A DNA stretch of 64,000 nucleotides from a bacterium (GCA_024692925.1 JAILLX010000088.1:152-64151); one strand, 5' to 3'. Positions 9,666 through 29,724 are shown, counted from the first letter of the stretch. The notes: generated from the letters alone by a model not told the origin. A program made the numbers and translations.

Positions 9666-9917
9666 TTATTTTTTCTTCCAATTTCTTTCTAATTCAGAAA
9701 TAATTTCTTTTGCACTAACACCTATGGCATGAGCTACATCCAAAAATTCTATTACATCAAGACGTCTGTCGCCATTTTCATATTTTGAAATATATGATTG
9801 ATTTTTATGCAATACATCAGCCAATTTTTTCTGTGTAAGGCCCATTCTTTTTCTTGCATTAAAAATAAGTTTTAAAAAAAGTTTATTATTATCATTTAAT
9901 TGTCTTGTCATTTTCAA
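9666..9917 (-). CDS. XRE-family helix-turn-helix transcriptional regulator
   Basis: 83 aa; LTQKKLADVLHKNQSYISKYENGDR HTH_3-type motif. Confidence 0.8.
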   Translation of the reverse strand: MKMTRQLNDNNKLFLKLIFNARKRMGLTQKKLADVLHKNQSYISKYENGDRRLDVIEFLDVAHAIGVSAKEIISELERNWKKK

Positions 9918-10048: not shown

Positions 10049-10303
10049 TTACTTTTTCCCCTTTCTAATCATATTTTTTATAAAGGAAACAAGATATCGT
10101 TCTCCCTCTAAAAATCTTAATTCTGCATCACTTGATGTTGGCGACAAATAGCGATTAAGTGTAATTGAAACCAAATATTCCAAAACTTTTTTTCCACAAT
10201 CAGTATTAAAAGTTTTTACAAAATAAATAGGCATAACTTCTAACTCTTTTTTAAAATCTTTATCTTCCAATAAATCATTCATTCCTAATAAATCCTTTTT
10301 CAT
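10049..10303 (-). CDS. hypothetical protein (start reassigned to MKKDLLG)
   Basis: ORF with G-rich RBS; no recognisable motif; last gene of the minus-strand phage-like block. Confidence 0.35.
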   Translation of the reverse strand: MKKDLLGMNDLLEDKDFKKELEVMPIYFVKTFNTDCGKKVLEYLVSITLNRYLSPTSSDAELRFLEGERYLVSFIKNMIRKGKK

Positions 10304-10372
10304 AATTTCCCCCATAAATAAAAAAGGGTACCTTTTAAAAAGATACCCTATAAAAAATAATAACAAAAATTT

Positions 10373-11032
10373 TTATATAAATATTTGACCAGTCATTTTA
10401 AGTGTCTTTGGAAATGCTTTAAGACTACTGTTTCCACTTACAAAAATATGACCATTAACAAAATTATTTCCTGCAAAACTTAATGCTTCCGAATTAATAA
10501 GGTATATATTTCCAATCACATGGAAATTTTTCGGAATTTTTACAAAGTTAATATCTTTGATATACAAATCACCTTCGATTCGCACATTGGATTTAAGATA
10601 TTCCAAATGTCCCTTTGTAAACAAAACATTACCACTTATAACCTTAACTTTTGACGAAGATTTTTTAAATTTCACAACATTAGTTTTCTTCGAAGTCAAA
10701 ACTTGTTTACGGCAATTTTTACCATTACAAAGCAACTTTGCCTTATTCAAATATCTATCGCTTGCATAATTTTTAAGACCCGCAGAAAGAGGAATTCCTC
10801 TTTTAAACTCAACACCATCATCATAAACAAAATTAACTTTCGTAGGTCTTGCAAAAGGAACAAAAATATTTTCTGGTTTATCTTCTTTATTAGCCTTTAT
10901 ATAAGCACGAATTTCCGCCTTTTTAACTTCTTTTGCTGATTTTTTATAAGTTTTCATATAAACAAAACCACCCAAAATCATCAAAAATAATCCGGTAAAA
11001 ACAAGCATATATCTTTTTTGTTCAGTATTCAT
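10373..11032 (-). CDS. membrane-anchored hypothetical protein with C-terminal repeat-like region
   Basis: 219 aa; N-terminal TM helix; C-terminal N/I/G-rich repetitive segment (leucine-rich-repeat-like). Confidence 0.45.
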   Translation of the reverse strand: MNTEQKRYMLVFTGLFLMILGGFVYMKTYKKSAKEVKKAEIRAYIKANKEDKPENIFVPFARPTKVNFVYDDGVEFKRGIPLSAGLKNYASDRYLNKAKLLCNGKNCRKQVLTSKKTNVVKFKKSSSKVKVISGNVLFTKGHLEYLKSNVRIEGDLYIKDINFVKIPKNFHVIGNIYLINSEALSFAGNNFVNGHIFVSGNSSLKAFPKTLKMTGQIFI

Positions 11033-11111: not shown

Positions 11112-11981
11112 TCATATTTTAAAATCAGTCCTAATTTTAAATGGAATATTAGGCAATTTCCGCACATTTCTTATTCTTCCACCAACAACAGCCGGCATTT
11201 TCACAGGCTCAGCCAAAATTGCACCAGCAACACTATCCAAACCATCATCATGAACATTGCTATCAACATTCCAGTCTGTAAATTCGCCAATAAACGGAGT
11301 ATTTTTCACTGATTCGTTCACAAAAAGATAGCCCGCAGACACAACCGCATCAAACGCATCCAAAATCCTAAGCTCCTTTGAAACCTTTGAAGTTTTTGCA
11401 ACAACAACCGTATCAATTCCCATTTTCAAAAGTTCGGATCTTAAAAACTCTGGTAAAAATTTACCAATACCATTACTTTCAACATTAATAAGCGGTACAA
11501 AATTTCTTTTTAAAAATCGCCCAACACTTTGACATTGATATCGTGCAGATTGCACATCCTCGCCGTCCTTAAAATAAAGATATTCCACATCATGCAGGTA
11601 ATACCGCCCATCTTCATCAATGAAAACAACTGACACAACCGAACCATCACCATTTTTGGAACCATACGCCGGATCCCACCAACAAGACATACTGATAATT
11701 CGTTTATCCATAATGGAAAAGAAAAGTTCCCTATTCCGCTCCTCTCGTTTTATCTCGGCATCATAGAATGAAAGTTTATTCACATCAAACCTTCCATCAC
11801 TAATATCAACCGGACAAAGCATCATCTGGGCTGAAAATTTTTTCATACCAACTGATTTTTTAAGTTGTTCTATTTTCTCCAACGGAAACTTTTCTTCCCA
11901 AACTGACTTTCCATTTTCAATAACCGGAATTTTCAAGACATCATAACCAATCAAAAAAGCATCGAAAACATCATCACTCAT
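11112..11981 (-). CDS. phage terminase large subunit, C-terminal nuclease (RNase H-like) domain only
   Basis: 289 aa; WWDPAYGSKNGDGSVVSVV (beta1 catalytic Asp) and C-terminal HDDGLDSVAGAI terminase signature; ATG overlaps the portal stop (ATGAGTGA). Confidence 0.8.
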   Translation of the reverse strand: MSDDVFDAFLIGYDVLKIPVIENGKSVWEEKFPLEKIEQLKKSVGMKKFSAQMMLCPVDISDGRFDVNKLSFYDAEIKREERNRELFFSIMDKRIISMSCWWDPAYGSKNGDGSVVSVVFIDEDGRYYLHDVEYLYFKDGEDVQSARYQCQSVGRFLKRNFVPLINVESNGIGKFLPEFLRSELLKMGIDTVVVAKTSKVSKELRILDAFDAVVSAGYLFVNESVKNTPFIGEFTDWNVDSNVHDDGLDSVAGAILAEPVKMPAVVGGRIRNVRKLPNIPFKIRTDFKI

Positions 11982-13485
11982 TTTTTACATCAATCAAATT
12001 TTCCGGCACAGAAAATGTCTTTGCAAGCCACAATGCAACCGCCTTTTTATCGACAATATTTGTTGCCTCTGTCCCAAGTTCAGAAAGAGCCTTTATCCAT
12101 GCCAAAATATTTTCCGCATCACGCACCGCCTGATTTTTTGCAAGTGGTGATTGATACTTCAAATCAACCTCATGCCCATCAATAAATATGTCTTCTATCT
12201 CACCCCTGCGTTTCAAAATTGAAACCGCACGAAGAATAACCGGCGTCAAAAATTCAGATTGAAGTCGGCCATATGTTGCACCCAAAATTCGGCTCATCTG
12301 ATTTGTTCGTTCAATAACTTCTGTCGCAGTCATCTTTGCCGAATTAAAAGATAAAATTTGATCCACCAAAAGACTGTGATTTATCTTTGCCCTTAAATCC
12401 GAAAGGACCAATTGCGAAACATCGAAATCCGCACCGGTCCTAAGTGGTGTAAGCCCACTTGACCCCACCGCCTTTGGAATAATTGTTCCCGGAGCCAAAG
12501 TAATATTTTCGATATTAAGGACACCATCATCATCCGCTTGCCAAACACCACTTACTGCAATTGATGCATTTTTAAGGATAAGTTCCACCACCTTATTTGC
12601 AGTTTTTATATCAGGCAAAGCACTCATCACCGGCGATCTTCCATAAATTTCTGATGGTACTTTCATCCATCTGAAACAAATGAACGGTGAGTTTGCAAAC
12701 ACCCCTGTTTTAAGGACAAATTTATGCCCAAGTTTAAGACAATTATTTTCATCAATTACGAATGCAACATAATTATAACCCTGTTGCCCACATGCATTTA
12801 TCCTTGGCAAAACAGCTTCTATCACCGTCACCATTTCATCCGGATTTTTATTTATATATGAAAGTTGTACTTCATCAAATTCAAAATTTGAAAACCTTAA
12901 TTTCAAATTCAAAAGTGAAAGATTTGTCCTTCTGAAAACCGTATCCAACTTACCATTCAAATTTTCCTCTAATGCAATTTCATTCATTGGCACCGCAGTA
13001 AATTTGAATGCAGAAACATCACCAACCTGATTTTCTTCCATAAGCATTACCGCAGTTCCAATAGTAATCAAATCCAAATAACACTGATGAGCTTCCACAT
13101 AAAAATTTGATCTATCGAAATGAGATTGCAAAGTTTTTTGTATCTTTTCCAATTGTTTGTATTTTTCGGATTTTGTATCTGCATCATCAATCACATCAAC
13201 ACCAAACCCAAGTCCAAACCATCGTGACCATGGTGGAGTAAGTTCCGATAAAATACTTCCTGCTAATTTTGCAACACCACTTTCCGCAGTCGAATCAAAA
13301 ATATCAGGACTTTTCTTTTTTGAATATTGCCCACCGGTAAAAAGTCCACCTTTTTGTGGCAAGGCAAAATCATAACATTCATTCCAATCTGGTTCCCACT
13401 CCAACCTTTTTTCCATTGCCAATTTGTATCTTGAATAAATTTTTTCAAGTTCCATTTCATCAACAACATATCTGTTTTCAAGCAT
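11974..13485 (-). CDS. T7 gp8-like head-to-tail connector (portal) protein
   Basis: 503 aa; alignable by eye to T7 gp8 (D..DSTAESGVAKLAG..L..L.PPW region; conserved YGRS motif in VPSEIYGRSPVMSAL). Confidence 0.8.
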   Translation of the reverse strand: MLENRYVVDEMELEKIYSRYKLAMEKRLEWEPDWNECYDFALPQKGGLFTGGQYSKKKSPDIFDSTAESGVAKLAGSILSELTPPWSRWFGLGFGVDVIDDADTKSEKYKQLEKIQKTLQSHFDRSNFYVEAHQCYLDLITIGTAVMLMEENQVGDVSAFKFTAVPMNEIALEENLNGKLDTVFRRTNLSLLNLKLRFSNFEFDEVQLSYINKNPDEMVTVIEAVLPRINACGQQGYNYVAFVIDENNCLKLGHKFVLKTGVFANSPFICFRWMKVPSEIYGRSPVMSALPDIKTANKVVELILKNASIAVSGVWQADDDGVLNIENITLAPGTIIPKAVGSSGLTPLRTGADFDVSQLVLSDLRAKINHSLLVDQILSFNSAKMTATEVIERTNQMSRILGATYGRLQSEFLTPVILRAVSILKRRGEIEDIFIDGHEVDLKYQSPLAKNQAVRDAENILAWIKALSELGTEATNIVDKKAVALWLAKTFSVPENLIDVKNE

Positions 13486-13507
13486 ATTAAACCCCTTTTC
13501 TTAAATT

Positions 13508-13542
13508 AAAAAAATCCCTTTAAGATAAAATTCTTAAAGGGA
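13508..13542 (-). terminator. rho-independent terminator downstream of ftsZ (minus strand)
   Basis: tccctttaag/cttaaaggga 10-bp stem followed by T-run on the minus strand. Confidence 0.6.
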
Positions 13543-13563
13543 GGTTAAAAAAAATTATAACTA

Positions 13564-15252
13564 TTATTTACTGCTATTATCCTTTTTAAATATTGCCGGA
13601 ATATGCATAGTTTCTTCCATTTTTTGCAACATTTCCATAATATCAGTTTGTTGAGCTTCTTGCTTTTGTTCTTCAAGTCCGCCCGCTAAAAATACGACAT
13701 TATCATCTTCGTGTTTTTCAGTTTTTTCCAATGCTTTCACTTCTAAATTTTCAGATTTCGAAAGCTTTGAATCATCATCACCGAATGTATCAACATCATC
13801 AAAGAAATTATCCTCTTTTGATTCGCCAAGCATATCAAAAAATGATGACAAAGGACTTTTCTTTTTTCCATTACCGCCGTTTGGATCGGTTGGATCATCA
13901 TCGCCATTATCATCATCTTTTTTTGAAACTTCAGCCTCATTCTTTTTTGTAATTTCTTCGGCTTCACGATTTATAAAATCGTCAATACTAAGTGATTCAT
14001 TTTTTTTCATAAAAGCGTCAAAACTATTATCTTCGGTTTGTCCCATATCCTTAAACAAACTTTCAGGTTCAGTTTTTTCATTATCCAAAACAAGTTCGTT
14101 TGCCCCAAGTTCATCAATTGCGACCGAAGGGTCTTTTTCAAATGTTTCGTTATCTATTGGCAAAGGTTTTTCTTCGACTTTTTTCTCTTCCTTTCTATCC
14201 GAAGAAAGAGAAGTCATAAAATCATTCACAACAGGTTTTGTCGCAAAAACATTACCATTTGAAACTGCTTCAGAAAGCCCAGTTGCAATAATCGCCACCT
14301 TTAAATTTTCGCCCATATTTGCATCAAAGCAAGTACCAAGATAAAAGTTTGTTTCATCGCCATCAATTTCACGTCTGATGCTATTCATCACCTCGGCTGG
14401 TTCATCCAAAGAAAGGTTTTCCGGATTCGCAGTAATATTCACCAAAACCGACCTTGCCCCCCTTATATCATTACCGGAAAGCATTGGGTTTTGCAAAACG
14501 CCACTTACTGCCTTAATCGCCCTATCCTCACCACTTTGAACTGATGTACCGATAAGGGTTCTTCCACTTTCCTCCATAACCGCACGAATATCCGCAAAAT
14601 CAAGGTTTATTGTACCTGGGATACGGATTAAATCAGTAATATTTTTCACCCCTTCATAAAGGACATTATCCGAAACCTTAAACGCATTCAAAAATGTCAT
14701 TTGCTTTCCCGCAACATGATAAAGGTTTTGATTAGGAAGCACGATATAAGAGTCCACATTTGGAACCAACTTTGCAATTGCATCGTTTGCAATTTTTTCC
14801 TTTTTCTTTCCTTCAAATTCAAACGGAGTAGTAATAATCGCCACGGTCAAAATTCCCTTTTCCCGAGCAAGCCCAGCAATCACCGGCATTGCACCACTAC
14901 CTGTACCGCCACCCATACCAGCAGTCAAAAAAAGTATATTAGTATTTTTAATTATATCAGAAATTTCGCCACTTGATTCTTCGGCTGCCTTCTGCCCAAC
15001 TTCTGGCCTTGAACCGGCACCAAACCCCTTGGTTGTCTGTTTACCAAGTTGAATTTTTTTCGAAGCCTTTGATTGAATAAGCGATTGTGCATCCGTATTT
15101 GCCACAACAAAATCGACACCATCGATTCCCTGACTAATCATATTATTTACGGCATTACAACCAGCCCCACCAACACCCATTACGGTAATTCGTGGAATAA
15201 AATTTTGAATTTCGTCGTCATTTGATTTATATCCGAAATTTCCTTCAATCAT
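13564..15252 (-). CDS. ftsZ: cell division GTPase FtsZ (long acidic C-terminal linker)
   Basis: 562 aa; ITVMGVGGAGCNAV, tubulin signature LFLTAGMGGGTGSGAMPVIA, NLDFADIRAVM; C-terminal HIPAIFKK resembles conserved DIPAFLR peptide. Confidence 0.92.
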   Translation of the reverse strand: MIEGNFGYKSNDDEIQNFIPRITVMGVGGAGCNAVNNMISQGIDGVDFVVANTDAQSLIQSKASKKIQLGKQTTKGFGAGSRPEVGQKAAEESSGEISDIIKNTNILFLTAGMGGGTGSGAMPVIAGLAREKGILTVAIITTPFEFEGKKKEKIANDAIAKLVPNVDSYIVLPNQNLYHVAGKQMTFLNAFKVSDNVLYEGVKNITDLIRIPGTINLDFADIRAVMEESGRTLIGTSVQSGEDRAIKAVSGVLQNPMLSGNDIRGARSVLVNITANPENLSLDEPAEVMNSIRREIDGDETNFYLGTCFDANMGENLKVAIIATGLSEAVSNGNVFATKPVVNDFMTSLSSDRKEEKKVEEKPLPIDNETFEKDPSVAIDELGANELVLDNEKTEPESLFKDMGQTEDNSFDAFMKKNESLSIDDFINREAEEITKKNEAEVSKKDDDNGDDDPTDPNGGNGKKKSPLSSFFDMLGESKEDNFFDDVDTFGDDDSKLSKSENLEVKALEKTEKHEDDNVVFLAGGLEEQKQEAQQTDIMEMLQKMEETMHIPAIFKKDNSSK

Positions 15253-15398
15253 AATCTCCCCCTTTTGACTTCATTCCCTAAGTATACCATAAAAAAAGCA
15301 AAAAGTTAAGATATAAAAAGCAAAAACGAAAAATATTTTTATTGACTAATCAGAACCAAACACATCCATTCCGGACTTGATTTGGAATCCACAAAAAA

Positions 15399-15908
15399 TT
15401 ATTCGCTAATACTTACATTTGACAAAGCATTATTGCAATCTTCTGCCTTATCCATAAGTTCAGCAAGTTCCTTTGTCGATGATGCCGAAAGTGCCACCGA
15501 AACCAGATTTGCACCTGTCGCCACACCCGAAGCAATAGTCGATGCCAACCGCAAATTTTTCAACTTTGCATTATTATCTTTGTTTATATTTGTCTCAGAT
15601 TTTGCATTAGCTTTTTCACCAATTGCTATATTGTCTTTTTCTTCATTAGCCTTAATAATCTTGCCCGCCTTTAACGCAGCCATTGTGGATGTAGTCGCAC
15701 CAACACCACTTGCCACGGTCGCAACACCCGATGTCACACTGGTTCCAATTGATTTTGATTTCACTTCATTAAGCACAGATTTATCAAACACACAAGTGGA
15801 AATTACCGCCTCTATATTCTCAGCCTGCTTTTTAATTTTTGTGGAAGAAAGCTTTGCCTCCGCCCCAGTTGATACAAAAGCCAACAAAACCAAAATTAAT
15901 TTTTTCAT
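15399..15908 (-). CDS. secreted Gly/Ala/Thr-rich protein
   Basis: 169 aa; signal peptide; GVATVASGVGATTS / GVATGANLVS glycine-zipper-like segments; stop abuts the start of the upstream 553-aa gene. Confidence 0.45.
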   Translation of the reverse strand: MKKLILVLLAFVSTGAEAKLSSTKIKKQAENIEAVISTCVFDKSVLNEVKSKSIGTSVTSGVATVASGVGATTSTMAALKAGKIIKANEEKDNIAIGEKANAKSETNINKDNNAKLKNLRLASTIASGVATGANLVSVALSASSTKELAELMDKAEDCNNALSNVSISE

Positions 15909-17569
15909 TATTCTTCTCCATAACTTTCAAGTTCAGCATTATAAGAGTTGTAAAGCAATTTCAATGCCGACATTTTTGACTCACATTCTTGCAAATGCGA
16001 AAGTGCAGAATCCGCAGTCGCAACCGCTGCCAAAGAAAGAGCAAATGTTCCACCCGATGTTAAAAGTGACCCAGCATTAAGTCCCGCCTGTACCCAATCC
16101 AAAGTATGCGAAGTCTTTACATTGCTATCCACCGACTTTTCGATACTTTTTCTTTGAGAAATCTTACTATTGTTTTCTTCTATCTTTTTAATTCTATTCT
16201 CAAGAAGAACTAAACTATCAGTCATATTTGTTAAACCAGTATCGCTAACATAATTAGATGGATTATTTCTTGCATCACTCCAAATCTCAACAGAAATATT
16301 ATCAGCTTCATTTTTCAACTCTGCATACCTTTTTTCATAAGATTTATCAAATTTATCCTTAGAATCATAACTCAAACCATAAGACTGAATTCTTGCCTTA
16401 CAAGAACCTGCTATCTTATCATCGACAAATTCAGGTTTTTTATTATTATCCAACTTTGTATACTTTTTACATTCAGTAATTTTACTTCCATCATTAGACC
16501 ATTTTACACCACCCATTTCACCTTCAAATTTTAAGAAATCGAAAGTTTTTTCATTAACTTTTTTCTCGACTTCTTTATCATTAAGATTTACTCCTAAGTC
16601 CTTCTTTTTTTCTGCAATCTTAGATTCAAGCTCTTCTTTTGCTCTTAATACACAACCCAATTTTTCTGTTGCAAGCTTGCTCTCATCTAACTTAGTACTT
16701 TCAACCAGACTAAGATCTATCGAAGATTTACAATCATCCTTAGTCGACTTATCTTCTTCACCAGAAACATCTGTTATTTTATTATACTGTTCTATTTTCT
16801 TGCCTACCTCGTTGGTCTTCTTAACATTCACAACACCAACTGCGGTTGCACCACCCGAAAGCAACATACCACCAACCGAAAGCCCAGTCGACCAACCAAG
16901 TTGACCTTTCAACTTTTCCATATCGTCATAAAATGCCGAGCAAGAAGACTTTGCATCATTTATCGCACTAACAATCTTTGGCACAAATTCCGCCACATCA
17001 ACAAACTGTTCATAATCAAATGACATATAGTTCACATCGACATCCGACCTTACAATTTTTAAACGGCGGGAAAGTGCAAATGTTTCAAGTTGAGATTTGC
17101 TTGCCTCCACCAATTCAATTGTATACGAATACCCTGCAAGCAATGGCTGACATTCGAACCCAGCCTCTGCACTATACGAAACAATATCCCCAGATGATGA
17201 AATTCCGGTTAGTTTCATATACGGACCAAAGCAAAGTGTTTCATTAAGCCCTGCTGATCCATTTGATTTATAATATGCCGAAACACTAGGGAGCAACATC
17301 GTCGCCAAATCATACTTCACATCATACCTAAGTTTTGTATCAAAAACCGCAGAGTCGGCAATAAACCTATGTGTCGAAGTTTGTATTGATGAACCTGACG
17401 ATGAACTACTTGAACTGGAAGATGAAGTCGATGACCTACTTGCCCTTAATTCAGATGATGATGTTGCACGTTTCGAAGATCTTGTACTTTTCTTCTTTTT
17501 TGCAAAGGCACCATCGCCCAACCCAAGGCAAAGACTTAAAACCAAACCAGAAACAATAACTTTTCTCAT
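15908..17569 (-). CDS. secreted coiled-coil protein with basic Ser/Arg-rich N-terminal module
   Basis: 553 aa; signal peptide, KKKKSTRSSKRATSSSELRASRSS, poly-Ser, long coiled coil, Gly-rich hydrophobic segments; paralogous to 47176..48756. Confidence 0.5.
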   Translation of the reverse strand: MRKVIVSGLVLSLCLGLGDGAFAKKKKSTRSSKRATSSSELRASRSSTSSSSSSSSSSGSSIQTSTHRFIADSAVFDTKLRYDVKYDLATMLLPSVSAYYKSNGSAGLNETLCFGPYMKLTGISSSGDIVSYSAEAGFECQPLLAGYSYTIELVEASKSQLETFALSRRLKIVRSDVDVNYMSFDYEQFVDVAEFVPKIVSAINDAKSSCSAFYDDMEKLKGQLGWSTGLSVGGMLLSGGATAVGVVNVKKTNEVGKKIEQYNKITDVSGEEDKSTKDDCKSSIDLSLVESTKLDESKLATEKLGCVLRAKEELESKIAEKKKDLGVNLNDKEVEKKVNEKTFDFLKFEGEMGGVKWSNDGSKITECKKYTKLDNNKKPEFVDDKIAGSCKARIQSYGLSYDSKDKFDKSYEKRYAELKNEADNISVEIWSDARNNPSNYVSDTGLTNMTDSLVLLENRIKKIEENNSKISQRKSIEKSVDSNVKTSHTLDWVQAGLNAGSLLTSGGTFALSLAAVATADSALSHLQECESKMSALKLLYNSYNAELESYGEE

Positions 17570-17696
17570 TCCAATTCTCCCATAAATATATTAAACATAG
17601 TACCATATTTTTGGACATAATCCAAGCAATATTTGAAAAAATTTACTTTTTTTGTTGCGTTTTAGTAAAATATCGGTTATAAACTATACATCCGAT

Positions 17697-17772
17697 GGCG
17701 AGGTAGCTCAGTTGGTAGAGCAAAGGACTGAAAATCCTTGTGTCGGCAGTTCGATTCTGCCCCTAGCCACCA
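17697..17772 (+). tRNA. tRNA-Phe (GAA)
   Basis: Cloverleaf by hand: acceptor GGCGAGG/CCUAGCC (one G4.A69 mismatch), D-loop AGUUGGUAG, anticodon loop cuGAAaa, T-loop UUCGAUU, encoded CCA. Confidence 0.88.
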
Positions 17773-17779
17773 TAAATTC

Positions 17780-17810
17780 ACTCCCCACTGTTTTGTGGGG
17801 AGTTTTTTTA
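17780..17810 (+). terminator. rho-independent terminator after tRNA-Phe
   Basis: ctccccac...gtggggag hairpin + T-run. Confidence 0.6.
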
Positions 17811-17828
17811 TTTCGAAAAATGATTATT

Positions 17829-19016
17829 TTATTTTGAATTATATTCCGATATTCCAAGGAAATCCTCTAATTTTACTGATCCTTTTTTTAAACTTTCCGT
17901 TCCCTTTACAAACATATTGTCACAATCAAGATATCCCTTTAAACGAGTCTGAAGTTCAGAATACCAAGGTTTTTCCTTTAATCCATTAAGTATAAATTTC
18001 AAATTTTCATTCATTTTATTTGAATGATTACGAATAGTCATATCCAAAAATGGGTTATAATCCTTAATACTACTTTCGGAATGTATTTCCGCTATCTTTG
18101 CAAAAGCCGAATACATATCAAAATTTAGTTTACTTCCATCAACAATGCTATTCATAATACTTTTACGCATTGAAAAAAACACACCACCAGAAGTCAAAGT
18201 TTTATAGACATTATCAATATTTTCATCCATTAACTTTTCATTAAACTCAATCAATGAAAGCCCTTCATCTTCCAACCTACTTTCCAAAGATTCGGAATGG
18301 GATTTATTACCACCATCACCCTTTAACCCCATATCATTTGCAATACTTGCAACCTTCACAGAAACATCATCTTCATGGGAAGATACAAATTTTTTCCCCA
18401 TTTCACCCAATGAAAGTTTTACAACATTATCCCTCAAAATATGAAACAATATAGAATTTTTTTCCTCATCCGATTTTGCATTTTCATAATCGAATTTAGT
18501 ATAATAATCAGCTACCTCTAAAATCTGTTTTACCTCATCTTCTGTATAATTCGAAGTTTTATAAACAGCAGAGTTTTTGCCAATTTCATACAATTTATCC
18601 CCTTTTTGTACTGGCTTAACAATAAAGGCATTATCAGGCAACACCAATCCCGTATCAGGATTAGGAATAAACCATGTATCATCTACCGAAACACTTTGTG
18701 GATTTACATTTTTACTAACCAACTCATTATATGGTATCAACACTACAAAAGGAGTTTTATCCCAATTCCCAGCCATATGAGATGTTACCACTTGATTTAA
18801 TGTTACATGCACACTAGCCCTAGGAAGCTTATAATCCGTAGCCATACCAGTAGTTTCAATATATCGCTCGCCATTCAAATTAACCTTTGGCTCATACTTT
18901 GTTGCATGAACACAAACCCAATTTTTCACATCAGACATATAGTCCACTTTGGCTTTTTTATCTTTTAATTCAAAAGATTCTACTTTTTCTAATAATTCCA
19001 TTTTTGCTCCTATCAA
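17829..19016 (-). CDS. hypothetical protein
   Basis: 395 aa intact ORF, no recognisable motifs; lies between the terminase ATPase half and tRNA-Phe. Confidence 0.45.
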   Translation of the reverse strand: MIGAKMELLEKVESFELKDKKAKVDYMSDVKNWVCVHATKYEPKVNLNGERYIETTGMATDYKLPRASVHVTLNQVVTSHMAGNWDKTPFVVLIPYNELVSKNVNPQSVSVDDTWFIPNPDTGLVLPDNAFIVKPVQKGDKLYEIGKNSAVYKTSNYTEDEVKQILEVADYYTKFDYENAKSDEEKNSILFHILRDNVVKLSLGEMGKKFVSSHEDDVSVKVASIANDMGLKGDGGNKSHSESLESRLEDEGLSLIEFNEKLMDENIDNVYKTLTSGGVFFSMRKSIMNSIVDGSKLNFDMYSAFAKIAEIHSESSIKDYNPFLDMTIRNHSNKMNENLKFILNGLKEKPWYSELQTRLKGYLDCDNMFVKGTESLKKGSVKLEDFLGISEYNSK

Positions 19017-20083
19017 AACCCAAAATTATTATAGCATTTTTACAAATCAAAAAACAATAATTAAAAAAAGCAAATATTCCATTCAATTCTAAAGGTAATC
19101 ATTAAAAATATCCTCCATATTTTAAACGAAAAACCAACACAAAAACACCCAACATTTTCCAATCCTCAAATCCATATTGTTCATTTATTGACAAATATTT
19201 ATTTTAGTCCTAAAAATTTGAGAATTCTCGAAAAAAAATAACAAAAAAGTGATTTTTTTATTTGAAATTTAAAAATTAAATTGCTAAAAAAGAACTATGT
19301 TTCGACCGATTCGAGAATCGATTCTATTTTTTACAAAAAGAATCGGTTTTTAAAGTGCTTTTTCTAGTGATTTTTCACTAGACAATTTGATTTTTCAAAA
19401 AGAATCTTAAAATTTTTAACTGATTGATTTTACAGTAAAATTTTTTGTTTTTCTTAGTTTAAAAAGTTGCCAAAAAAAGAATCGCTTGACTTTTTTTGTC
19501 GAGTAGTTTAAGAATCTAGCTATGAAACGAATTTGAAATATATTTTTAAGTTTGTTTTCACAGTTATTCCCTGTTGCGTTCCTTTTCTCTCCTTTCCTCC
19601 TTCTCTCCTCGCAACGGGGAATTTTTTTTATCTTGAGCAAGATATCCGAGTAAACAACCTTCCCTTGCCATTGCAAAGCAAAGGCGTGACAATCCATAAT
19701 AAGACAAACACATCTACTGTCACCCTGAACTTGTTTCAGGGTCCAGATCCCGAAATAAATTCGGGATGACCAAAGTTGGCGGAAATATCCCACTTTACCA
19801 TTACGAGAAATCCTAGAATTGCTGGTTTGTATACTCGGTTGGCTCCGATAAAAAAATCCCTTAAGTCGAGGAGAGAGAGAAAATAAGGAGGGAATGACTT
19901 AAGGGATATACTGGCTTTCACCAGACTTGCCGAAATGAGGGGTCGTCTCGGCAAATTTTGTTTTCGTATTAACGAATTGACTTCATTATACAAATTTATT
20001 TTTCTTTGTCAATATATTTTTGAAAAAAATTTTTATTTGTATAATATTTTTAATTTTTTCAGTAAAATCAATAGGTTTTTATT
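19017..20083. promoter_or_regulatory. ~1.07 kb non-coding region: AT-rich iterated AAAAAGAATC repeats and palindromes, then a GC-richer block of long hairpins
   Basis: AAAAAGAATC at 19335, 19397, 19474 (+AAGAATC 19509); palindromes gagaattctc, gaatcgattc, ctagtga-N5-tcactag; hairpins 19569-19619 and 19858-19905 with complementary CT-/GA-rich 28-31 nt loops. Confidence 0.5.
19719..19743. repeat. palindromic hairpin repeat, copy A (gtcaccctgaacttgtttcagggtc)
   Basis: Same unit as at 41931, 42046, 42377; stem carries a compensatory change (ccctgaa/ttcaggg vs tcctgaa/ttcagga); preceded by shared 18-nt box aatccataataagacaaa (19691-19708). Confidence 0.7.
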
Positions 20084-20683
20084 CTAAGTTTTATAAATTG
20101 TATCCAATGTATGAGGTGTCCCAATAAAAATTTGCATACCATTTGGCACCAAAATAAAGCTATATTCCAAAAGTTTCTCTCTCAAATCTTGTCTTTTTTG
20201 AAAAGTATCGCAATTTTTTGGTACCTCCACATCATCACAAATCACAACATCAGCCCTACTTCCCGTAGCATTAGACATAAGTCCCACCGCCATCATAGAT
20301 GGATCCCGCAAAGCCACATCACGTGCCACGGTAAAACTTCCCGACGCCCACTCTGATTTTTTCTCAGGTCTAATTTCTTCTAACAAAGGAAAAGTTTCAA
20401 TAATTCGCTTAACATTTCTGACCATCTTTTTTGCCAAAACTGTATCCGCCGCAACCACTAAAATCCTAAGGTTCGGATTAGTATATAAAAGCCACGCACA
20501 AAACACACCAACTATTGTTGACTTTCCACTACTTCGAAACGCCATCAAAAGACCTTTTTTATTTTCAGATTTGTAAATATTCAAAAGCCACTTTGCAATA
20601 CGTATATGGTGCGATGGTGTCGAAAGTCCCTGAAATTTATTCCAATCCAAAAGGAATTTTTCAAAATCAACTTTTTCAACCAT
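20084..20683 (-). CDS. phage terminase large subunit, N-terminal ATPase domain only
   Basis: 199 aa; Walker A AFRSSGKST, ILVVAADTVLAKK, Walker B GSRADVVICDDVE, IFIGTPHT: matches Terminase_6N-type ATPase core; ORF stops after the ATPase domain. Confidence 0.82.
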   Translation of the reverse strand: MVEKVDFEKFLLDWNKFQGLSTPSHHIRIAKWLLNIYKSENKKGLLMAFRSSGKSTIVGVFCAWLLYTNPNLRILVVAADTVLAKKMVRNVKRIIETFPLLEEIRPEKKSEWASGSFTVARDVALRDPSMMAVGLMSNATGSRADVVICDDVEVPKNCDTFQKRQDLREKLLEYSFILVPNGMQIFIGTPHTLDTIYKT

Positions 20684-20684
20684 T

Positions 20685-21110
20685 TTATACTATATTCAAA
20701 TCACCAAATGAATCCAACAAATCCAAACTTTTCTTTCGCATAGTCAAAAGATTTTTATTTTTCTTATAGTTATAATTTATATCATTCGAAGCCAAAGCAA
20801 GATCGGAAAAATATTCCTTATTTTTAATTTCATCCTCTGCTTCTCTTTCCATACTACCAAGAAGGACTGCCGAAGACCCATCTGTAAAATCCACACCATT
20901 TGATGCCATCTTTGCTTTTTTACTTGCAACTTTTGATTTAAGAAGGTTTCTTTTTTCCTCCTCATAAAGTTCTTGTTTTTTCCTTAAATTATCCTCTTGA
21001 ATCTTTGCTTCTTTTTTTGCTAATTTTTTTGATTTTTTAGCATCTTGTATATCCATCACGGTTTTCGCAGCAGAAACAACTCCACCAATCACCGCAGCCG
21101 TAGTTCCCAT
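20685..21110 (-). CDS. hypothetical coiled-coil protein (position of T7 gp13-like internal/assembly protein)
   Basis: 141 aa; follows the gp12-like gene as gp13 does in T7; no direct motif. Confidence 0.35.
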   Translation of the reverse strand: MGTTAAVIGGVVSAAKTVMDIQDAKKSKKLAKKEAKIQEDNLRKKQELYEEEKRNLLKSKVASKKAKMASNGVDFTDGSSAVLLGSMEREAEDEIKNKEYFSDLALASNDINYNYKKNKNLLTMRKKSLDLLDSFGDLNIV

Positions 21111-21122
21111 AATAAATACCTC

Positions 21123-22997
21123 CTATCTTATTACATCAACCAACATTGACATATTTAAAATTTTTAATTTACAAGGAGCCGAACTTTGAATTTTAAACAA
21201 AGGAATTTGGTAATTTTTAACAAAACCTTTTCCACGAATTTTTACATCACCAGAAAAATATTCATCATTAAGAATTATATTTTTAAGTCCCGCCCCTGTA
21301 TCTACTTCCAACTTTTCTGTATCCATAAGTCGTAAATTAAGTTCCAACAGTCTTACCGCCTTTGGAATAAAGCTTGAACCAACAAACAAAGGTAAAGGAC
21401 AAAAGATATGAGTAAAAGGAAGCCCAACAACAATATTTTTACAAGGCTTCGGCAAACTAACTTCATTATTTTCCACCCGTAAATTATAAATTTCACCATC
21501 CGCAACAACTACTACATCTTTATTATTTAAAAAGTCCAAATCAGTAATAGTCGAAATTTCCGTTATCGAAGATATTTTCTTTGCTTTATCAAGAAATAAA
21601 TCTTCATCAAAAACTTCTAAACTATAGGTTCCATCTCGTTCCACAACGACATAAACTTTATCAAATAACACAGCCAACGATTTAAACTTTCCATTGGTTT
21701 TATATTGCACCCACGCATTTGTATTATGACTTTTGTTTATAAGAAGTACTGCCAAAGTTCCATCTTCCTGTACAACATAAAGCCTTCGTTTTTTAACATT
21801 ATAATCTTGTTCCAATGGATTATTAAGAAGATGTGACGAAAGCAAAATTAAATCTTCGGATGAATAATTTTCACTTAAATCGCCATAGAAAAACTCTCTT
21901 ATTTCCTTTTTATTTCTTGCCACAAAAATTGTTGAACCTTCTACAAATTTCGGAGCAATATACCTATCATCCACCGACCCAATTTTTGTTTGTTGACTAA
22001 CACTGATATTCGACGGAGTAATCGGATTCCCAACAACCATCCATTCGGAATCAGATGTAAAAACTTGTAAATGTTTACCGGCAAAAACCGAAACTATTTG
22101 ATTACGCTTGTCTGAAAAAATATCAAATTCAATAGCTTCATCATCAAGTCCACTTCCCAAATCGAAATTAAAGTATTCACCAATTTTTGAAAACCACAAC
22201 CTATTTTTTAAAACATCAGTTCCACCAATCACAAGTCTGTTTTGATAAAAAGCAATACTTGCCGGATATCCACTTTTCTCAGAAAATGCCTGTTCTTGCC
22301 AATTTGCATCTGCATCTTTTGAATTCAAATCCACATTAACAGTTGCATTTGCAACACGTCCCGTAGAAACAGAATTTATCAGTATTTCTCCACCATTTAT
22401 CAAAATCTTCACACCGACATAAATACTGGAAAACAAAGATTGACTTGCCACAATTTTTATTTCCCCAGTTGTCCCATTAGGTGTCAATGTAATCCCTTCG
22501 GTACCATCAATTCTTGTATACGGTTCACACGAATATCCATATGTCGGATGTTTAGGATATATCCAAAAAGCAATAGTCCATGTTCCAACCAACTTATTAT
22601 ACCTAATAATCCGAGGCGGAATAAAAGGATGAACCAAATACAAAGTTTGTCCCTTTTGCACCCATCGCATCTTTGGCAAATCAGAAAGAGTATACGGTGA
22701 ATCTAATGTAGTCACAAACTCACCATTTTTATTAAAAATATCAATATATTCATCTCTGAAAAAAAGTAAAAACATACTGTCTTCGGAATATTCAAAGGCA
22801 ATAATTTTCCCATTTGATTCCAAACTTGAAACAAATTTCAAACCGCTTCGTCTTTCAATACCACCTGTCTGAATCACATCAAAATTAGTAAGGTTCATCG
22901 CCGAACTTCTGTATGCCGAAATATTTCCACGCCCAAACAAATTTCGTGAAAGTTCGCCAAACGAAAAATCATTATAAGTAATACTTTGTTTTGCCAT
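21123..22997 (-). CDS. T7 gp12-like tail tubular protein B
   Basis: 624 aa; KNRLWFSKIGEYFNFDLGSGLDDEAIEFD aligns to T7 gp12 RNRLGFLSG..AKYFNFYP..LSDDDPID; gene order gp11-gp12 preserved. Confidence 0.7.
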   Translation of the reverse strand: MAKQSITYNDFSFGELSRNLFGRGNISAYRSSAMNLTNFDVIQTGGIERRSGLKFVSSLESNGKIIAFEYSEDSMFLLFFRDEYIDIFNKNGEFVTTLDSPYTLSDLPKMRWVQKGQTLYLVHPFIPPRIIRYNKLVGTWTIAFWIYPKHPTYGYSCEPYTRIDGTEGITLTPNGTTGEIKIVASQSLFSSIYVGVKILINGGEILINSVSTGRVANATVNVDLNSKDADANWQEQAFSEKSGYPASIAFYQNRLVIGGTDVLKNRLWFSKIGEYFNFDLGSGLDDEAIEFDIFSDKRNQIVSVFAGKHLQVFTSDSEWMVVGNPITPSNISVSQQTKIGSVDDRYIAPKFVEGSTIFVARNKKEIREFFYGDLSENYSSEDLILLSSHLLNNPLEQDYNVKKRRLYVVQEDGTLAVLLINKSHNTNAWVQYKTNGKFKSLAVLFDKVYVVVERDGTYSLEVFDEDLFLDKAKKISSITEISTITDLDFLNNKDVVVVADGEIYNLRVENNEVSLPKPCKNIVVGLPFTHIFCPLPLFVGSSFIPKAVRLLELNLRLMDTEKLEVDTGAGLKNIILNDEYFSGDVKIRGKGFVKNYQIPLFKIQSSAPCKLKILNMSMLVDVIR

Positions 22998-23005
22998 TAC
23001 TCCTC

Positions 23006-23569
23006 CTATTTTCTTGCATCAATCAAAGAAAAATTTTTCAAAGATTCTGTTGTTTGTTGCATACCATCTATTGATTTTGCTTCTTTTATTTCAGAATTAA
23101 AAAGCCTGTAAAATAATGAATATTTTGATGTATCATTCAAAAGAGAAATCGAAAGTTCGGCAGCCATCAAATAAATAAATGATGAAACAAAAAGTGGTGA
23201 AAAACAATCCTCTCCTACATCAGAAATATACTCAAGTTCCACTTCTTCATCATTACAAAACAAATAGCTCCCTGCAATTTTGTATTTTACTCCTGATGAA
23301 ATTTTCACCGCCCTTAAAAAATCAGCCGGAAGAATATATGCATAACTGTAATCATAACGATTAACATCATCAGCCCTTGTCAACAACGCTGTTTTCAAGG
23401 CAAAACTCCACGCATAAAGGCAAAGAAGTTTTTGTTTTAATCCCAAATAAATACTTTCACAAATTTCCGATTCAACAGTTCCATCTTCAAAAGAAGTTAT
23501 CGAATTCGCCCCAATTTTATTAAGGGCTTTTGAACATAATTCAATATTTGAAAAACTCATATTACTCAC
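23006..23569 (-). CDS. T7 gp11-like tail tubular protein A
   Basis: 187 aa; N-terminus ELCSKALNKIGANSITSFEDG aligns to T7 gp11 [23 protein letters not shown]; size matches (196 aa). Confidence 0.65.
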   Translation of the reverse strand: MSNMSFSNIELCSKALNKIGANSITSFEDGTVESEICESIYLGLKQKLLCLYAWSFALKTALLTRADDVNRYDYSYAYILPADFLRAVKISSGVKYKIAGSYLFCNDEEVELEYISDVGEDCFSPLFVSSFIYLMAAELSISLLNDTSKYSLFYRLFNSEIKEAKSIDGMQQTTESLKNFSLIDARK

Positions 23570-23615
23570 CTTTTCCCTTTTTAAAAAAAGGGGGTCATTG
23601 CCCCCTTAAAATTTA

Positions 23616-23861
23616 CTAAACAACAGAAGATATACTTACTACACCCGCAGTAATCGCACTTACAACAAATATAGTTGTTTCCATTGTTCCATTTATAGAA
23701 GAAGATACAACAATCAAATCACCAACATTATAAATATTTGCAACATCGTTAAAATATCCTGATGTTGAAACAACACTCTTTGCATCTTCTGTTTTATAAT
23801 GCCACAAAGTAAAACCATTCGCATACGCAAGAACAGATAAATTTTTTGAATTCATACTCAT
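23616..23861 (-). CDS. hypothetical small protein between the capsid and tail tubular A genes
   Basis: 81 aa intact ORF; hydrophobic C-terminus. Confidence 0.35.
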   Translation of the reverse strand: MSMNSKNLSVLAYANGFTLWHYKTEDAKSVVSTSGYFNDVANIYNVGDLIVVSSSINGTMETTIFVVSAITAGVVSISSVV

Positions 23862-23896: not shown

Positions 23897-24727
23897 CTAA
23901 GCAATTGTTGCATCATCATCGCAAAGGATTTTTACAATACCTAAATTATCAATAAGTTTTGCACCCTGACTCATACAATTTGATACGAAATGAGATGCTC
24001 TTTCGCCATGCCATGAAATATCAGTTTTTACATCACAACCTGATGCATGACCTATTGCATTTTTGTGATAAATAAAGCAACTACGATTACCATCAGCAAT
24101 TGGCAAAGAATTATGTAAAATCCAATTAATTCCCATCCATTTTCTTGATTCTGTACCTTTCAAAAGAGGATATGAATCACCAACATAATCAGCACTGGAA
24201 AATTCTTCCATACTTAAAAGTTCATTCCATTGATGCACACCAACAACACCAAATCTTTGGCCATCATCCGGCACATCATTTGCATTTAAAAATTCTAATG
24301 CTTCAAAAATTTTTGATTTAGTAAGACCTGTTGAACCGGCACTAACCGCATTTGTTGCTTTATCAAGTTCTGAAATAATAAGTTCATCACTTTTTCTTCC
24401 CAAAGCATACGCACCAGCCGATGCAACAACTCTTCTTTCATCAATGTTTGTTTTAAGTTCATCAAGCTCGTCAACCCAATCCCCAGCATAGTAATCAGTA
24501 AGTACACATTCAACTGGTGTATGATCCAAATTCATCACTGGAACAAGTCCGTGTCTTGATTTAGTCGAAGCAATCCCCTTACCAATTTTTTGAAAAGTTG
24601 TTGAACTACCTCTTACATCATTTTTTGTTCTAACTGTTGAACGAAGTTTTGTTCCCATTTGTTGAAAAGCAAGGTGAACTTCCGCTTCGAATTGTTTTAT
24701 AAATACATTATCAATAGATACTGACAT
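23897..24727 (-). CDS. T7 gp10-like major capsid protein (HK97 fold)
   Basis: 276 aa; FEAEVHLAFQQ..RSTVRTKNDVRGSSTTFQKIGKG..ASAGAYALGRKSDELIISEL aligns to T7 gp10A FGGEVLTAF..SVTTSRHMVRSISSGKSAQFPVLGR..SQLGESLAMAADGAVLAEI. Confidence 0.78.
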   Translation of the reverse strand: MSVSIDNVFIKQFEAEVHLAFQQMGTKLRSTVRTKNDVRGSSTTFQKIGKGIASTKSRHGLVPVMNLDHTPVECVLTDYYAGDWVDELDELKTNIDERRVVASAGAYALGRKSDELIISELDKATNAVSAGSTGLTKSKIFEALEFLNANDVPDDGQRFGVVGVHQWNELLSMEEFSSADYVGDSYPLLKGTESRKWMGINWILHNSLPIADGNRSCFIYHKNAIGHASGCDVKTDISWHGERASHFVSNCMSQGAKLIDNLGIVKILCDDDATIA

Positions 24728-24835: not shown

Positions 24836-25396
24836 TTATTTTTTTACTTTTGTAATAATTGGTTCAATTCCCCTTACAATTCCATGCATCGAAGATATTG
24901 TAAACAAAACAGAAGCAAAAAATAGTACGAAAATTTGCACCGAAGATTCAATCAACTGTTTCGAATATTTTGTTAAAACCAAAAGATCTGTGTAAAACAA
25001 AATTGCAAATGCGAATGATACCAAAAATGAAACCAAAAGTTCGTATTTAAAAGATTTATTAAACACATATTCTATCTTTAATTTTTTCGATTTAATCATA
25101 ACATATTTTAAAATACCACACACAATAATAAAAGGCATAAATACTTTCACAATATTAAAAATTGCATCCACAACACCAATAAACATTATTTCGATTGGGT
25201 TCATTGCAAATCCAACAAGTTTATAAGTTTCCAACTTTTTAACAAAGGATTGTGTAAAGCATAAAATTACAGAAAGTACCAATACTGTTTTAATTATTGC
25301 ACCGGTATGATTATAAAAAAATCCCAACAATTTTCCAAAAAACGAAGATTTTTTATTTTCCTGTTTTCTGGTCTTGTTGGGATCCGAAACTACCAA
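24836..25396 (-). CDS. hypothetical polytopic membrane protein
   Basis: 186 aa; ~4 hydrophobic helices. Confidence 0.45.
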   Translation of the reverse strand: MVVSDPNKTRKQENKKSSFFGKLLGFFYNHTGAIIKTVLVLSVILCFTQSFVKKLETYKLVGFAMNPIEIMFIGVVDAIFNIVKVFMPFIIVCGILKYVMIKSKKLKIEYVFNKSFKYELLVSFLVSFAFAILFYTDLLVLTKYSKQLIESSVQIFVLFFASVLFTISSMHGIVRGIEPIITKVKK

Positions 25397-25404
25397 AGAA
25401 ATTT

Positions 25405-25839
25405 CTACTTCTTTGCTACTTTTTTTTTTGCTACTGGTTTAACAGCTTTCTTAACAGAAGCAACTTTTACAGCAGCTTTCTTAACAACGATTTTCTTTTT
25501 TGCTGGAGCTTTTACTGCAACTTTTTTTGCAGGAGCTTTTTTAGCAACTACTTTTTTAGCAGGAGCCTTTTTAACAGCAACCTTTTTAGCAGGAGCTTTT
25601 TTAGCAACTACTTTTTTAGCAGGTGCTTTTTTAACAGCAACTTTTTTTGCAACTACTTTTTTTGCTGGAGCTTTTTTAACAGCTACTTTTTTAGCAGGTG
25701 CCTTTTTAGCAGGAGCTTTCTTAACAGTAACTTTTTTTACTTCAACTTTTTTAACAGTAGTTTTTTTAACTTCAACTTTTTTTGCAGCTGGTTTTTTAGC
25801 AGCAGGTTTTACAGTTTTTTTAATTATACTTTTAAACAT
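25405..25839 (-). CDS. histone H1-like / Hc1-like Lys-Ala-rich DNA-binding protein (start reassigned to MFKS with AAGGAG RBS)
   Basis: ~144 aa; almost entirely KKAPAKKV(A/V)V decapeptide repeats; pI strongly basic. Confidence 0.72.
   Translation of the reverse strand: MFKSIIKKTVKPAAKKPAAKKVEVKKTTVKKVEVKKVTVKKAPAKKAPAKKVAVKKAPAKKVVAKKVAVKKAPAKKVVAKKAPAKKVAVKKAPAKKVVAKKAPAKKVAVKAPAKKKIVVKKAAVKVASVKKAVKPVAKKKVAKK
25440..25830. repeat. tandem ~30-nt coding repeats inside the H1-like gene
   Basis: gcaggagcttttttagcaactacttttttag... repeated >8x; the antisense ORFs 25297..25909 are artefacts of this repeat. Confidence 0.75.
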
Positions 25840-25929
25840 AATTCTCTCCTTAATTAAAACAAAAGACAATTACAATATACCACATAAAAAAGAATACTGC
25901 AATACTTAAATTAAAAAAATGCAAAAAAA

Positions 25930-29043: not shown

Positions 29044-29074
29044 TTCCCCATCATAAGGTGGGGATTTTTTATTT
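29044..29074. terminator. bidirectional rho-independent terminator between traT-like and tsaB
   Basis: tcccca...tgggga hairpin flanked by A-run and T-run. Confidence 0.55.
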
Positions 29075-29656: not shown

Positions 29657-29724
29657 ATTTTGGTTGACCCTTTTACTTTTCGTTATTATAATATCAAAAG
29701 GTGAGGAAAAAACAAGAGGGAAAA

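Follow-up and report, generated by a model that had tools for sequence, protein, structure and literature searches.

A T7-type large terminase encoded as two separate genes, with predicted small-RNA genes at the break, in a chromosomal phage-like element of gut bacteria

The 64,000-nucleotide stretch of bacterial DNA analysed here (GCA_024692925.1 JAILLX010000088.1:152-64151; hereafter the window, with positions counted from its first letter) carries a T7-like set of phage genes in which the large terminase (TerL) is encoded by two open reading frames (ORFs) on the minus strand. TerN (20084..20683, minus strand; 199 amino acids (aa)) is the final gene of one sub-cluster of phage genes (sub-cluster A, 28315 down to 20084, minus strand) and holds the RecA-like ATPase core of a T7-type TerL. 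TerC (11112..11981, minus strand; 289 aa) falls in a second (sub-cluster B, 13485 down to 9666, minus strand) and holds the ATPase lid (approximately residues 1-70), an RNase-H-like nuclease and a C-terminal tail. Each ORF has its own start and stop, 8,102 nucleotides (nt) lie between them, and their lengths total 488 aa (199 + 289). An initial annotation of this DNA had described a large terminase divided in this way; both ORFs proved real at these coordinates, and all the motifs it quoted were found (AFRSSGKST, DVVICDDVE, IFIGTPHT, WWDPAYGSKNGDGSVVSVV and HDDGLDSVAGAI). Its account of the 8.1-kb gap also agreed with our mapping: a T7-type portal gene (11974..13485, minus strand; PF12236, E 2e-118), ftsZ, genes for two signal-peptide proteins, a tRNA-Phe gene, a 395-aa ORF and a 1.07-kb non-coding stretch. 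No second terminase-like sequence was found in the window by tblastn with full-length relatives as queries.

TerN and TerC are pieces of one T7-type TerL, split in a variable loop within the ATPase domain. Against PHROG 38, the profile of T7-type TerL, TerN covers positions 270-459 (E 3e-42) and TerC positions 468-712 (E 4e-41), so the two abut without overlap; they come from one terminase lineage and not from two with overlapping domains. The Pfam matches are weaker than those to PHROG: Terminase_6N for TerN, and Terminase_6C and Terminase-T7_RNaseH-like for TerC (PF17289, E 1e-4; PF22530, E 1e-3). The region matched by TerN in the TerL of T7/PhiV-1 is residues 17-217 (E 4e-29; range about 1e-29 to 1e-37). 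When concatenated, the 488 residues align over 93-100% of their length with single-chain TerLs (470-505 aa) at 47-52% identity, with hundreds of matches from Rhodospirillales, Magnetospirillum, Skermanella and other Alphaproteobacteria, many on contigs of 0.2-6.4 Mb. This alignment to full-length proteins, proposed as a check in the initial annotation, maps the break directly after IFIGTPHTLDTIYKT (ATPase motif III), in a short variable stretch ahead of a conserved FLxG(F/Y), with no residues lost or doubled.

An AlphaFold2 model of the fused TerN-TerC chain (input alignment of 30 sequences; mean predicted local distance difference test score 85) places residues 199/200 inside a coil (189-212) that joins the motif-III strand to the strand after it; TerC accounts for helices 233-251 and for the whole chain beyond residue 270. 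The top Foldseek matches to this model were full-length TerLs, led by PhiV-1 (8dgc_E, 5.9e-30) and followed by T4 gp17, HK97, D6E and Sf6, and the nuclease fold of TerC matched the nuclease domains of RB49 and T4. ATPase-domain-only chains of P74-26 (250-258 residues) align across 271-279 columns, past the break at residue 199, which shows that TerN is the RecA-like core and that TerC comprises lid, nuclease and tail. The initial description of an ATPase half and a nuclease half is thus right for TerN, which is the ATPase core, but TerC also has the lid in its first ~70 residues, and the break lies inside the ATPase domain.

Both halves are under purifying selection. At dS values of 0.75-1.8, the pairwise ratio of nonsynonymous to synonymous substitution (dN/dS) was 0.08-0.14 for TerN and 0.10-0.19 for TerC, compared with 0.08-0.20 for ftsZ and 0.12-0.19 for portal, and it ranged from 0.08 to 0.30 across all genes of the element; selection on the two halves is about as strong as on ftsZ. 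Walker A (AFRSSGKST), Walker B with the catalytic glutamate (VICDDVE) and motif III (GTPHT) were present in all stand-alone TerN proteins (65/65), and D103, E168, D245, D246 and D249 were invariant in the representatives of stand-alone TerC (20/20). Neither frameshifts nor internal stops were present in TerN or TerC. The low dN/dS on both halves means that they are not pseudogene remnants, a possibility the initial annotation had raised against itself. These data also bear on the idea of a decaying prophage, in which the ORFs would be remnants of a rearranged terL or one half would have been reused elsewhere. The element is broken up by host genes and has no recognisable small terminase or gp15/gp16 core proteins nor, in the window, a fibre, all of which would suit decay. 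Decay is not expected to leave dN/dS near 0.1 on both halves at dS of about 1, catalytic residues that do not vary among at least 17 clusters (50% identity), or two frameshift-free halves that accompany genes for capsid, portal and tail in loci of 31-59% GC. The selection data largely refute this explanation, and we consider it very improbable.

The same arrangement was found well beyond the window. Orthologous loci include L002 (the same scaffold as L011; RUG13061) and L010 (water-deer rectum), each with a TerC 82% identical to that of the window, followed by L004 and L005 (ENA assemblies; 78%), L012 (MAG035; 73%) and L013 (65%), all independent assemblies from ruminant gut and rumen metagenomes. 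An artefact, either a chimeric contig or a sequencing frameshift, might be suspected because the sources are metagenome assemblies; the recurrence of the arrangement in independent assemblies made from different samples with different pipelines (ENA, NCBI, JGI, Logan, IMG/VR), with proteins 65-99% identical, refutes it, and we give it practically no weight. A split terL was present in L002, L005, L012, L013, L016, L017, L018, L019, L058 and L090, at 31-59% GC. When TerN alone was the query, dozens of stand-alone proteins were retrieved, 193-214 aa long and as little as 50% identical, and every one of them stops 6-11 residues past GTPH(T). An exhaustive HMMER search with TerC gave at least 17 representatives (50% identity clusters) of 265-300 aa that share a start point 2-12 residues ahead of FLxG(F/Y); no portal-TerC fusion protein was seen among its best 150 representatives.

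The more distant loci differ in what separates the halves. L016 (a 'Rickettsiales bacterium' metagenome-assembled genome (MAG), 59% GC) and L017 (58% GC) have the order tail B, gp14-like, fibre-N-terminal-like protein, TerN, 4-5 kb, portal-TerC, with ftsZ once more inside the gap of L017. In L018 and L090, both from bovine metagenomes, TerN is separated from TerC-portal-Bbp19 by 3.3 kb of genes on the opposite strand (helix-turn-helix (HTH); DnaB in L018). Identities between the window and L017 are 43% for ftsZ, 75% for capsid, 59% for portal, 58% for TerN and 45% for TerC. IMG/VR also holds many 10-25-kb 'proviruses' of the T7-like block, nearly all of them unsplit, so that comparison of orthologous loci, as suggested in the initial annotation, recovered both the fused and the split state, the latter kept across divergent lineages. 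We conclude that the split is both old and widespread in this chromosomal T7-like element. The initial annotation had called it unusual; a two-gene terL is real, but it is not peculiar to this genome and recurs in many lineages.

To our knowledge, TerL is a single chain in every studied phage. Intron-interrupted terL genes occur in crAss-like and staphylococcal phages, and herpesvirus pUL15 is encoded by two exons around an intron with other genes inside it, from which splicing yields a single mRNA and a single protein. The terminase coding sequence of pUL15 is, as here, parted by kilobases with unrelated genes, whereas two proteins are expected from the window. In the Jug gut phages, terL is broken up by group I introns, with splicing restoring it (PMC12880540), and in phage phiPDS1 terL appears as two adjacent coding sequences of uncertain reality (PMC10773633). 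Both share with the window a terL in two or more ORFs. However, their pieces are adjacent and co-transcribed and are rejoined by group I intron splicing, or may reflect an assembly or genetic-code issue, whereas the halves described here have no detectable intron, have their own stop and start, lie up to 8 kb apart with unrelated genes such as ftsZ in the gap, and are conserved under selection.

With the Jug phages as precedent, and with two halves on the same strand, in the right order and with a structured RNA at the break, one could propose that the halves are rejoined, by a cis- or trans-spliced intron, by a split intein or by programmed DNA excision, as with the sigK skin element. Several observations argue against this. 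No intron or other Rfam family was detected at the break (window spacer at E <= 1; L019, L058 and L090 at E <= 0.1). The normal total length of TerL leaves no room for intein halves, and there was no Pfam intein domain. TerN has its own stop, and TerC has its own ATG in the window and its own Shine-Dalgarno sequence (SD) and ATG in L019 and L058. Excision would remove portal and ftsZ, no recombinase lies between the halves, and no repeats flank the ends of the break: a search for att-like direct or inverted repeats across 9.5-28.5 kb gave nothing relevant, the sole strong repeat being the 15-nt periodicity of an HC2-like gene. Finally, a consensus promoter and a terminator of its own belong to the RNA at the break. 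We regard rejoining as extremely unlikely.

The sequence at the break was itself informative. The 1.07 kb after TerN are more conserved than the flanking coding sequence in the window, L002 and L005. The initial annotation had called this region a 1-kb structured spacer; it is structured, but it is not inert and holds two conserved, predicted small-RNA (sRNA) genes. The sRNA-1 gene (19850..20012, minus strand), just downstream of TerN, has a perfect TTGACA-16-TATAAT promoter (20012-19985; promoter scan 12/12) and would give an RNA of ~130 nt (fold z-score -5.6) ending in a terminator hairpin with a 28-nt loop, AUUCCCUCCUUAUUUUCUCUCUCUCCUC. The sRNA-2 gene (19486..19632, plus strand) is convergent with it and has a promoter-like site, a predicted RNA of ~110 nt (fold z-score -6.9) and a terminator hairpin with a 31-nt loop, UUCCUUUUCUCUCCUUUCCUCCUUCUCUCCU. 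The loops (28-31 nt) are near-invariant and pyrimidine-rich, contain CCUCCUU(A) and resemble an anti-Shine-Dalgarno sequence; CCUCCUUA in the sRNA-1 loop is also the sequence in which 16S rRNA ends at its 3' side.

sRNA-1 is near-invariant across the window, L002, L005 and L012 and is also found in L016 (59% GC); sRNA-2 is found in L002, L005, L012, L014, L016 and L017, with a related loop in L019 and L058. Both loops recur almost unchanged in L016, where the stems differ in sequence yet remain complementary (TCCCTTAAGTC/GACTTAAGGGA in the window vs CCCCCGGGTC/GATCCGGGGG in L016). The sRNA regions lie at 19486-20012 in the window (both strands), 1334-1988 in L002, 4868-5398 in L005 and 3079-3654 in L012 and, among the distant loci, at 10870-11481 in L016, 11282-11417 in L017, 8875-9022 in L019 and ~9180-9390 in L058. 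The hairpins were surveyed in 99 sequences (1.29 Mb) by a stem/loop regular-expression scan and nhmmer, which were used instead of a covariance model because the MAFFT alignment of the hairpins (alignment A5) was out of structural register. They were found in 9 distinct split-type loci (10 identifiers, L002 and L011 being the same) and in 0 of roughly 75 unsplit loci; no sRNA with a CU-rich loop was found within 10 kb of unsplit clusters of the L007, L008 and L015 type. No Rfam family matched the sRNAs or the spacer at the gathering threshold or at E <= 1, only tRNAs being matched in the window.

Two IMG/VR contigs hint at how the break may have arisen. L058 has a contiguous series of scaffold, capsid, tail A, tail B, fibre-like protein, TerN, 335 nt, TerC, two small ORFs, portal; L019 matches it in order through TerN, which is followed by 268 nt, TerC and portal. 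The insert of either contig is made up of a consensus promoter, one or two CU-loop hairpins and a terminator, after which come the SD and ATG of TerC, and the sRNA module is the only thing between the terminase halves. On the simplest reading of these relatives, an sRNA gene (promoter, CU-rich-loop hairpins, terminator) would have interrupted terL in place. Once the halves had become their own cistrons, rearrangements would have brought host DNA into the gap and exchanged the places of TerC and portal, leading to the present gap contents: DnaB and an HTH gene in L018-type loci, ftsZ and the secreted proteins in the window. At least two events beyond in-place interruption are needed to go from the canonical order to that of the window.

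In the window, the portal gene ends in ...AATGAGTGA, and the ATG of TerC lies inside that string, as read directly from the junction. The overlap of portal stop and TerC start noted initially was found as ATGAGTGA. The spacing varies among loci: the genes overlap by 8 nt in the window and L002 and by 14 nt in L017, the figure for L005 is 4 nt, and L016 has a gap of 2 nt. Judged from these junctions, translational coupling of portal and TerC is real and conserved in all loci of the portal-TerC type. An intrinsic terminator lies between ftsZ and portal (13515..13542, minus strand), the ribosome-binding site and ATG of portal following ~25 nt beyond its T-run. In the six loci compared (alignment A3), its stem differs in sequence and the pairing is kept. 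There is no space for a promoter between this terminator and the portal start, and we speculate that expression of portal-TerC depends on read-through or antitermination, the usual arrangement for phage late genes. The initial proposal that the halves are expressed from different operons thus holds as a prediction from consensus sites, namely the predicted sRNA promoter and terminator after TerN and the conserved terminator before portal.

It could be imagined that the split itself is adaptive, either as a two-key control of packaging, one half belonging to the late structural operon and the other lying behind a terminator beside ftsZ, or as a means to hide TerL from host sensors of the Avs type, which would let the host make domesticated particles without setting off its own suicide. 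The halves are predicted to lie in different transcription units, with a conserved terminator right before portal-TerC and no room for a promoter; the split has persisted over deep divergence; and the best structural match, 8dgc, is a TerL bound by Avs3. However, the argument is purely inferential, and no result bears on its immune-sensing version. L019 and L058 have the halves side by side, probably on one transcript, which implies that two-locus control is not ancestral. We consider an adaptive split improbable.

The explanation that we favour, and hold to be likely, is that of a two-chain terminase: one TerL made as two polypeptides that reassemble non-covalently, within a chromosomally fixed T7-type gene set. 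Domains cut in a surface loop can usually reassemble non-covalently, which is expected here because the pieces share a large packed interface, the lid on the core. TerN and TerC would thus join by fragment complementation, with the lid packed against the RecA-like core, to form a working packaging ATPase-nuclease, and the heterodimer would oligomerise on the portal like an ordinary TerL. TerC includes the C-terminal region, which in other terminases (lambda gpA and T4 gp17) contacts the portal, and the coupled translation of TerC and portal may deliver TerC at the portal vertex, the docking site of terminase.

Several points weigh against a functional two-chain terminase of this history. The ATPase and nuclease domains of T4 gp17, made separately, reportedly keep partial activities and do not package in trans (Kanamaru et al. 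2004), so that a two-chain terminase cannot simply be assumed to work, although the cut here lies elsewhere. Chain association, particle production and DNA packaging are predicted from the genes alone. TerN has no adjoining sRNA in L018-type loci, so that the case for an sRNA-caused split rests on L019, L058 and the clade of the window; in L018-type loci, either the sRNA was lost or the split was independent. A neighbour-joining tree of 184 ATPase cores has one branch that parts split from unsplit sequences, but this bipartition was recovered in 15 of 100 bootstraps of a 51-taxon subsample, and a single origin of the split, as judged from these sequences, is not robust. In the unsplit clusters, a 93-106-aa ORF overlaps the start of terL (9736-10017 in L015, 9706-10014 in L008 and 9674-9994 in L007; PHROG 31793) and is a candidate small terminase; no homologue of it was found in the window, L016, L017 or L018, and the small terminase of the split elements could lie elsewhere in the genome. 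Finally, no tail-fibre gene was found in the window.

The ftsZ gene between the terminase halves (13564..15252, minus strand; PF00091 and PF12327) encodes a 562-aa protein with an FtsA-binding-like C-terminal peptide, and it occupies the same position in L002, L005, L010, L012 and L017. Its ribosome-binding region, AAAAGGGGGAGAUUAUGAUUGAAGGAAAU (leader 15253-15300, minus strand), is predicted to pair with the type-2 loop. The duplex of the sRNA-2 loop with the ftsZ initiation region reaches -27.8 kcal/mol (RNAduplex), the best of the 68 ORFs in the window (mean -10.3, standard deviation 4.6), a value attained by 0 of 500 shuffles. The loop/ftsZ duplexes of relatives reach -20 to -22.7 kcal/mol, with just -13.8 in L012, and any purine-rich SD pairs with the loop to some extent. 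In L005 and L017, sRNA-2 lies directly upstream of ftsZ. The predicted pairing suggests a DicF-like control of cell division by a phage-derived element. DicF, an sRNA of the Qin prophage of E. coli, blocks the translation of ftsZ. DicF and the alphaproteobacterial anti-SD sRNAs ('cuckoo'/alpha-r14) resemble the RNAs described here in being encoded on a phage-derived element and in having CCUCCUUA-like anti-SD loops. Unlike these types, the present RNAs have no Rfam match, and their targeting of ftsZ is a prediction from duplex energy, weak in L012.

The rest of the element is consistent with a retained set of structural and lysis genes. Sub-cluster A, whose genes were identified with PHROG and Pfam and also mapped by tblastn and blastp to the unsplit clusters L007, L008 and L015, is headed by a winged-helix regulator (27815-28315), followed by the 93-aa 'y' gene (27304-27584), a homologue of the gene after terL in unsplit relatives, and by a divergent Hydrolase_2-like ORF (26867-27331), a candidate lysis enzyme. 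Then come a T7-type scaffold (25930-26523), an HC2-like Lys/Ala-repeat protein (25405-25869; PF07382, E 4e-12), a membrane protein (24836-25396), the major capsid protein (23897-24727), an 82-aa protein (23614-23861), tail tubular proteins A (23006-23569) and B (21123-22997), a gp14-like internal virion protein (20685-21110) and TerN, all on the minus strand. In sub-cluster B, portal and TerC are followed by a 219-aa membrane-anchored protein (10373-11032), a homologue of which follows TerC in L016, a Bbp19-like protein (10049-10366; PF25181, E 2e-8) and an HTH regulator matching HTH PHROGs (9666-9917), which ends the sub-cluster; these too are on the minus strand. The remaining genes of the gap encode the signal-peptide proteins of 553 aa and 169 aa (15908-17569 and 15399-15908, minus strand), tRNA-Phe (17697-17772, plus strand) and the 395-aa ORF (17829-19016, minus strand). 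No PHROG or Pfam match was found for the 395-aa, 553-aa, 169-aa and 219-aa proteins, and gp15/gp16 core proteins were not recognised in the element when it was mapped against the unsplit clusters.

The element is bounded by host genes, truA (8672; truA-fmt-def) on one side and tsaB/ksgA (29069-31533) on the other, and family searches found no integrase, polymerase, primase or RNA polymerase between them. The truA-fmt-def-rmuC flank and the internal ftsZ are common to L002 and L004. The hosts of the split elements are uncultured gut and rumen Alphaproteobacteria represented by MAGs. In unsplit L007 (Skermanella mucosa CP086106), L008 and L015, the genes form a contiguous ~11-kb block adjoined by an S24 (LexA/CI-like) repressor and flanked by housekeeping genes. 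Identity of TerL to deposited phage genomes reaches 31% at best. Structural and lysis genes only, host-like divergence similar to that of ftsZ, purifying selection, conserved host synteny and a division into sub-clusters match what is expected of a gene transfer agent (GTA) or a selectively retained defective prophage and do not fit an active T7-like phage. Most plausibly, the element makes GTA-like or defective-phage particles under host control. The initial annotation had suggested that the split could alter packaging, for example towards the headful cutting of GTAs; the GTA-like context makes this putative effect a reasonable idea.

The element shares with gp19 of T7/T3/PhiV-1 (PDB 4bij, 8dgc) its family, its fold and its T7-type neighbours (portal, scaffold, capsid, tail tubular A/B). 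However, gp19 is one 586-aa chain encoded beside the small terminase gp18 in a replicating phage, whereas here there are two chains from separate loci on a chromosome, with no detectable small terminase. The unsplit alphaproteobacterial TerLs (L007, L008, L015) are closer, at ~50% identity, and belong to the same gene set, likewise chromosomal and replication-less; they differ in having an uninterrupted terL, the 93-106-aa ORF ahead of it and a contiguous ~11 kb. Like GTAs of the RcGTA type and BaGTA, the element has a head-tail-terminase-lysis set without replication or integration genes, host synteny, purifying selection, sub-clusters and regulators. GTAs are defined by particles that package essentially random host DNA, in lengths too short to carry the GTA element itself, whereas the present element is known from its genes alone. 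The GTAs known to us derive from siphovirus-like (HK97-type) or other ancestors, none from T7-like podoviruses. No published T7-like GTA or split terminase without an intron was found in the literature searched, and papers on B. thuringiensis phage 0305phi8-36 and on the Bartonella GTA proved irrelevant. The combination of two stable proteins, a core/lid cut, an sRNA where the gene is broken, a gap of up to 8 kb with ftsZ and other unrelated genes, and deep conservation appears to be undescribed.

A fuller scenario would have a vertically inherited T7-like, podovirus-derived GTA family of Alphaproteobacteria in which, along one large branch, terL was cut by an anti-SD sRNA gene, the two-chain terminase is functional, and the sRNAs, retained beside ftsZ, shut down division in the manner of DicF when the particle genes are on. 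We put this forward as a tentative and rather unlikely whole. More generally, a compact T7-like structural set that is fixed in alphaproteobacterial chromosomes and evolves as host genes do would add a new evolutionary origin for GTA-like particles, in uncultured bacteria that are abundant in gut and rumen; should the predicted ftsZ pairing hold, particle production would be linked to cell division. The sRNA at the break would be a concrete example of a protein-coding gene split by the insertion of a regulatory RNA gene. Power-stroke models of packaging rest on covalent links between core, lid and nuclease, and a natural, long-lived cut between core and lid would be a ready-made test of which connections the motor needs; the system would also test the assembly of terminase from parts at the portal.

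Some further features of these loci deserve mention. The unsplit blocks contain portal, Bbp19, scaffold, capsid, tail A and B, a small ORF, TerL, Hydrolase_2 and a GTA-type holin. Such a ~11-kb T7-like block without replication or integration genes is carried by many Alphaproteobacteria (L007, L008, L015 and about 70 IMG/VR loci, L020-L098). We did not find it described in the literature searched, and it is a candidate for a new type of GTA or a domesticated podovirus. In the window, the HC2-like gene (25405-25869), which sits between the scaffold and capsid genes, consists of 15-nt tandem repeats (19 overlapping copies) and encodes a histone-H1/HC2-like protein, an odd passenger of a head operon that could have a DNA-condensing role. 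A pair of one large and one small signal-peptide protein recurs between the sRNA region and portal/ftsZ in L016 (11519-14022), L002 (4110-6460) and L012 (3864-6459), and may be cargo or a part of the element. L005 is without this pair, the tRNA-Phe and the 395-aa ORF. The tRNA-Phe and the 395-aa ORF occur in the lineage of the window only; the corresponding place holds a 452-aa ORF in L002 and nothing in L005, which indicates that the tRNA-Phe/395-aa stretch is recent, variable cargo.

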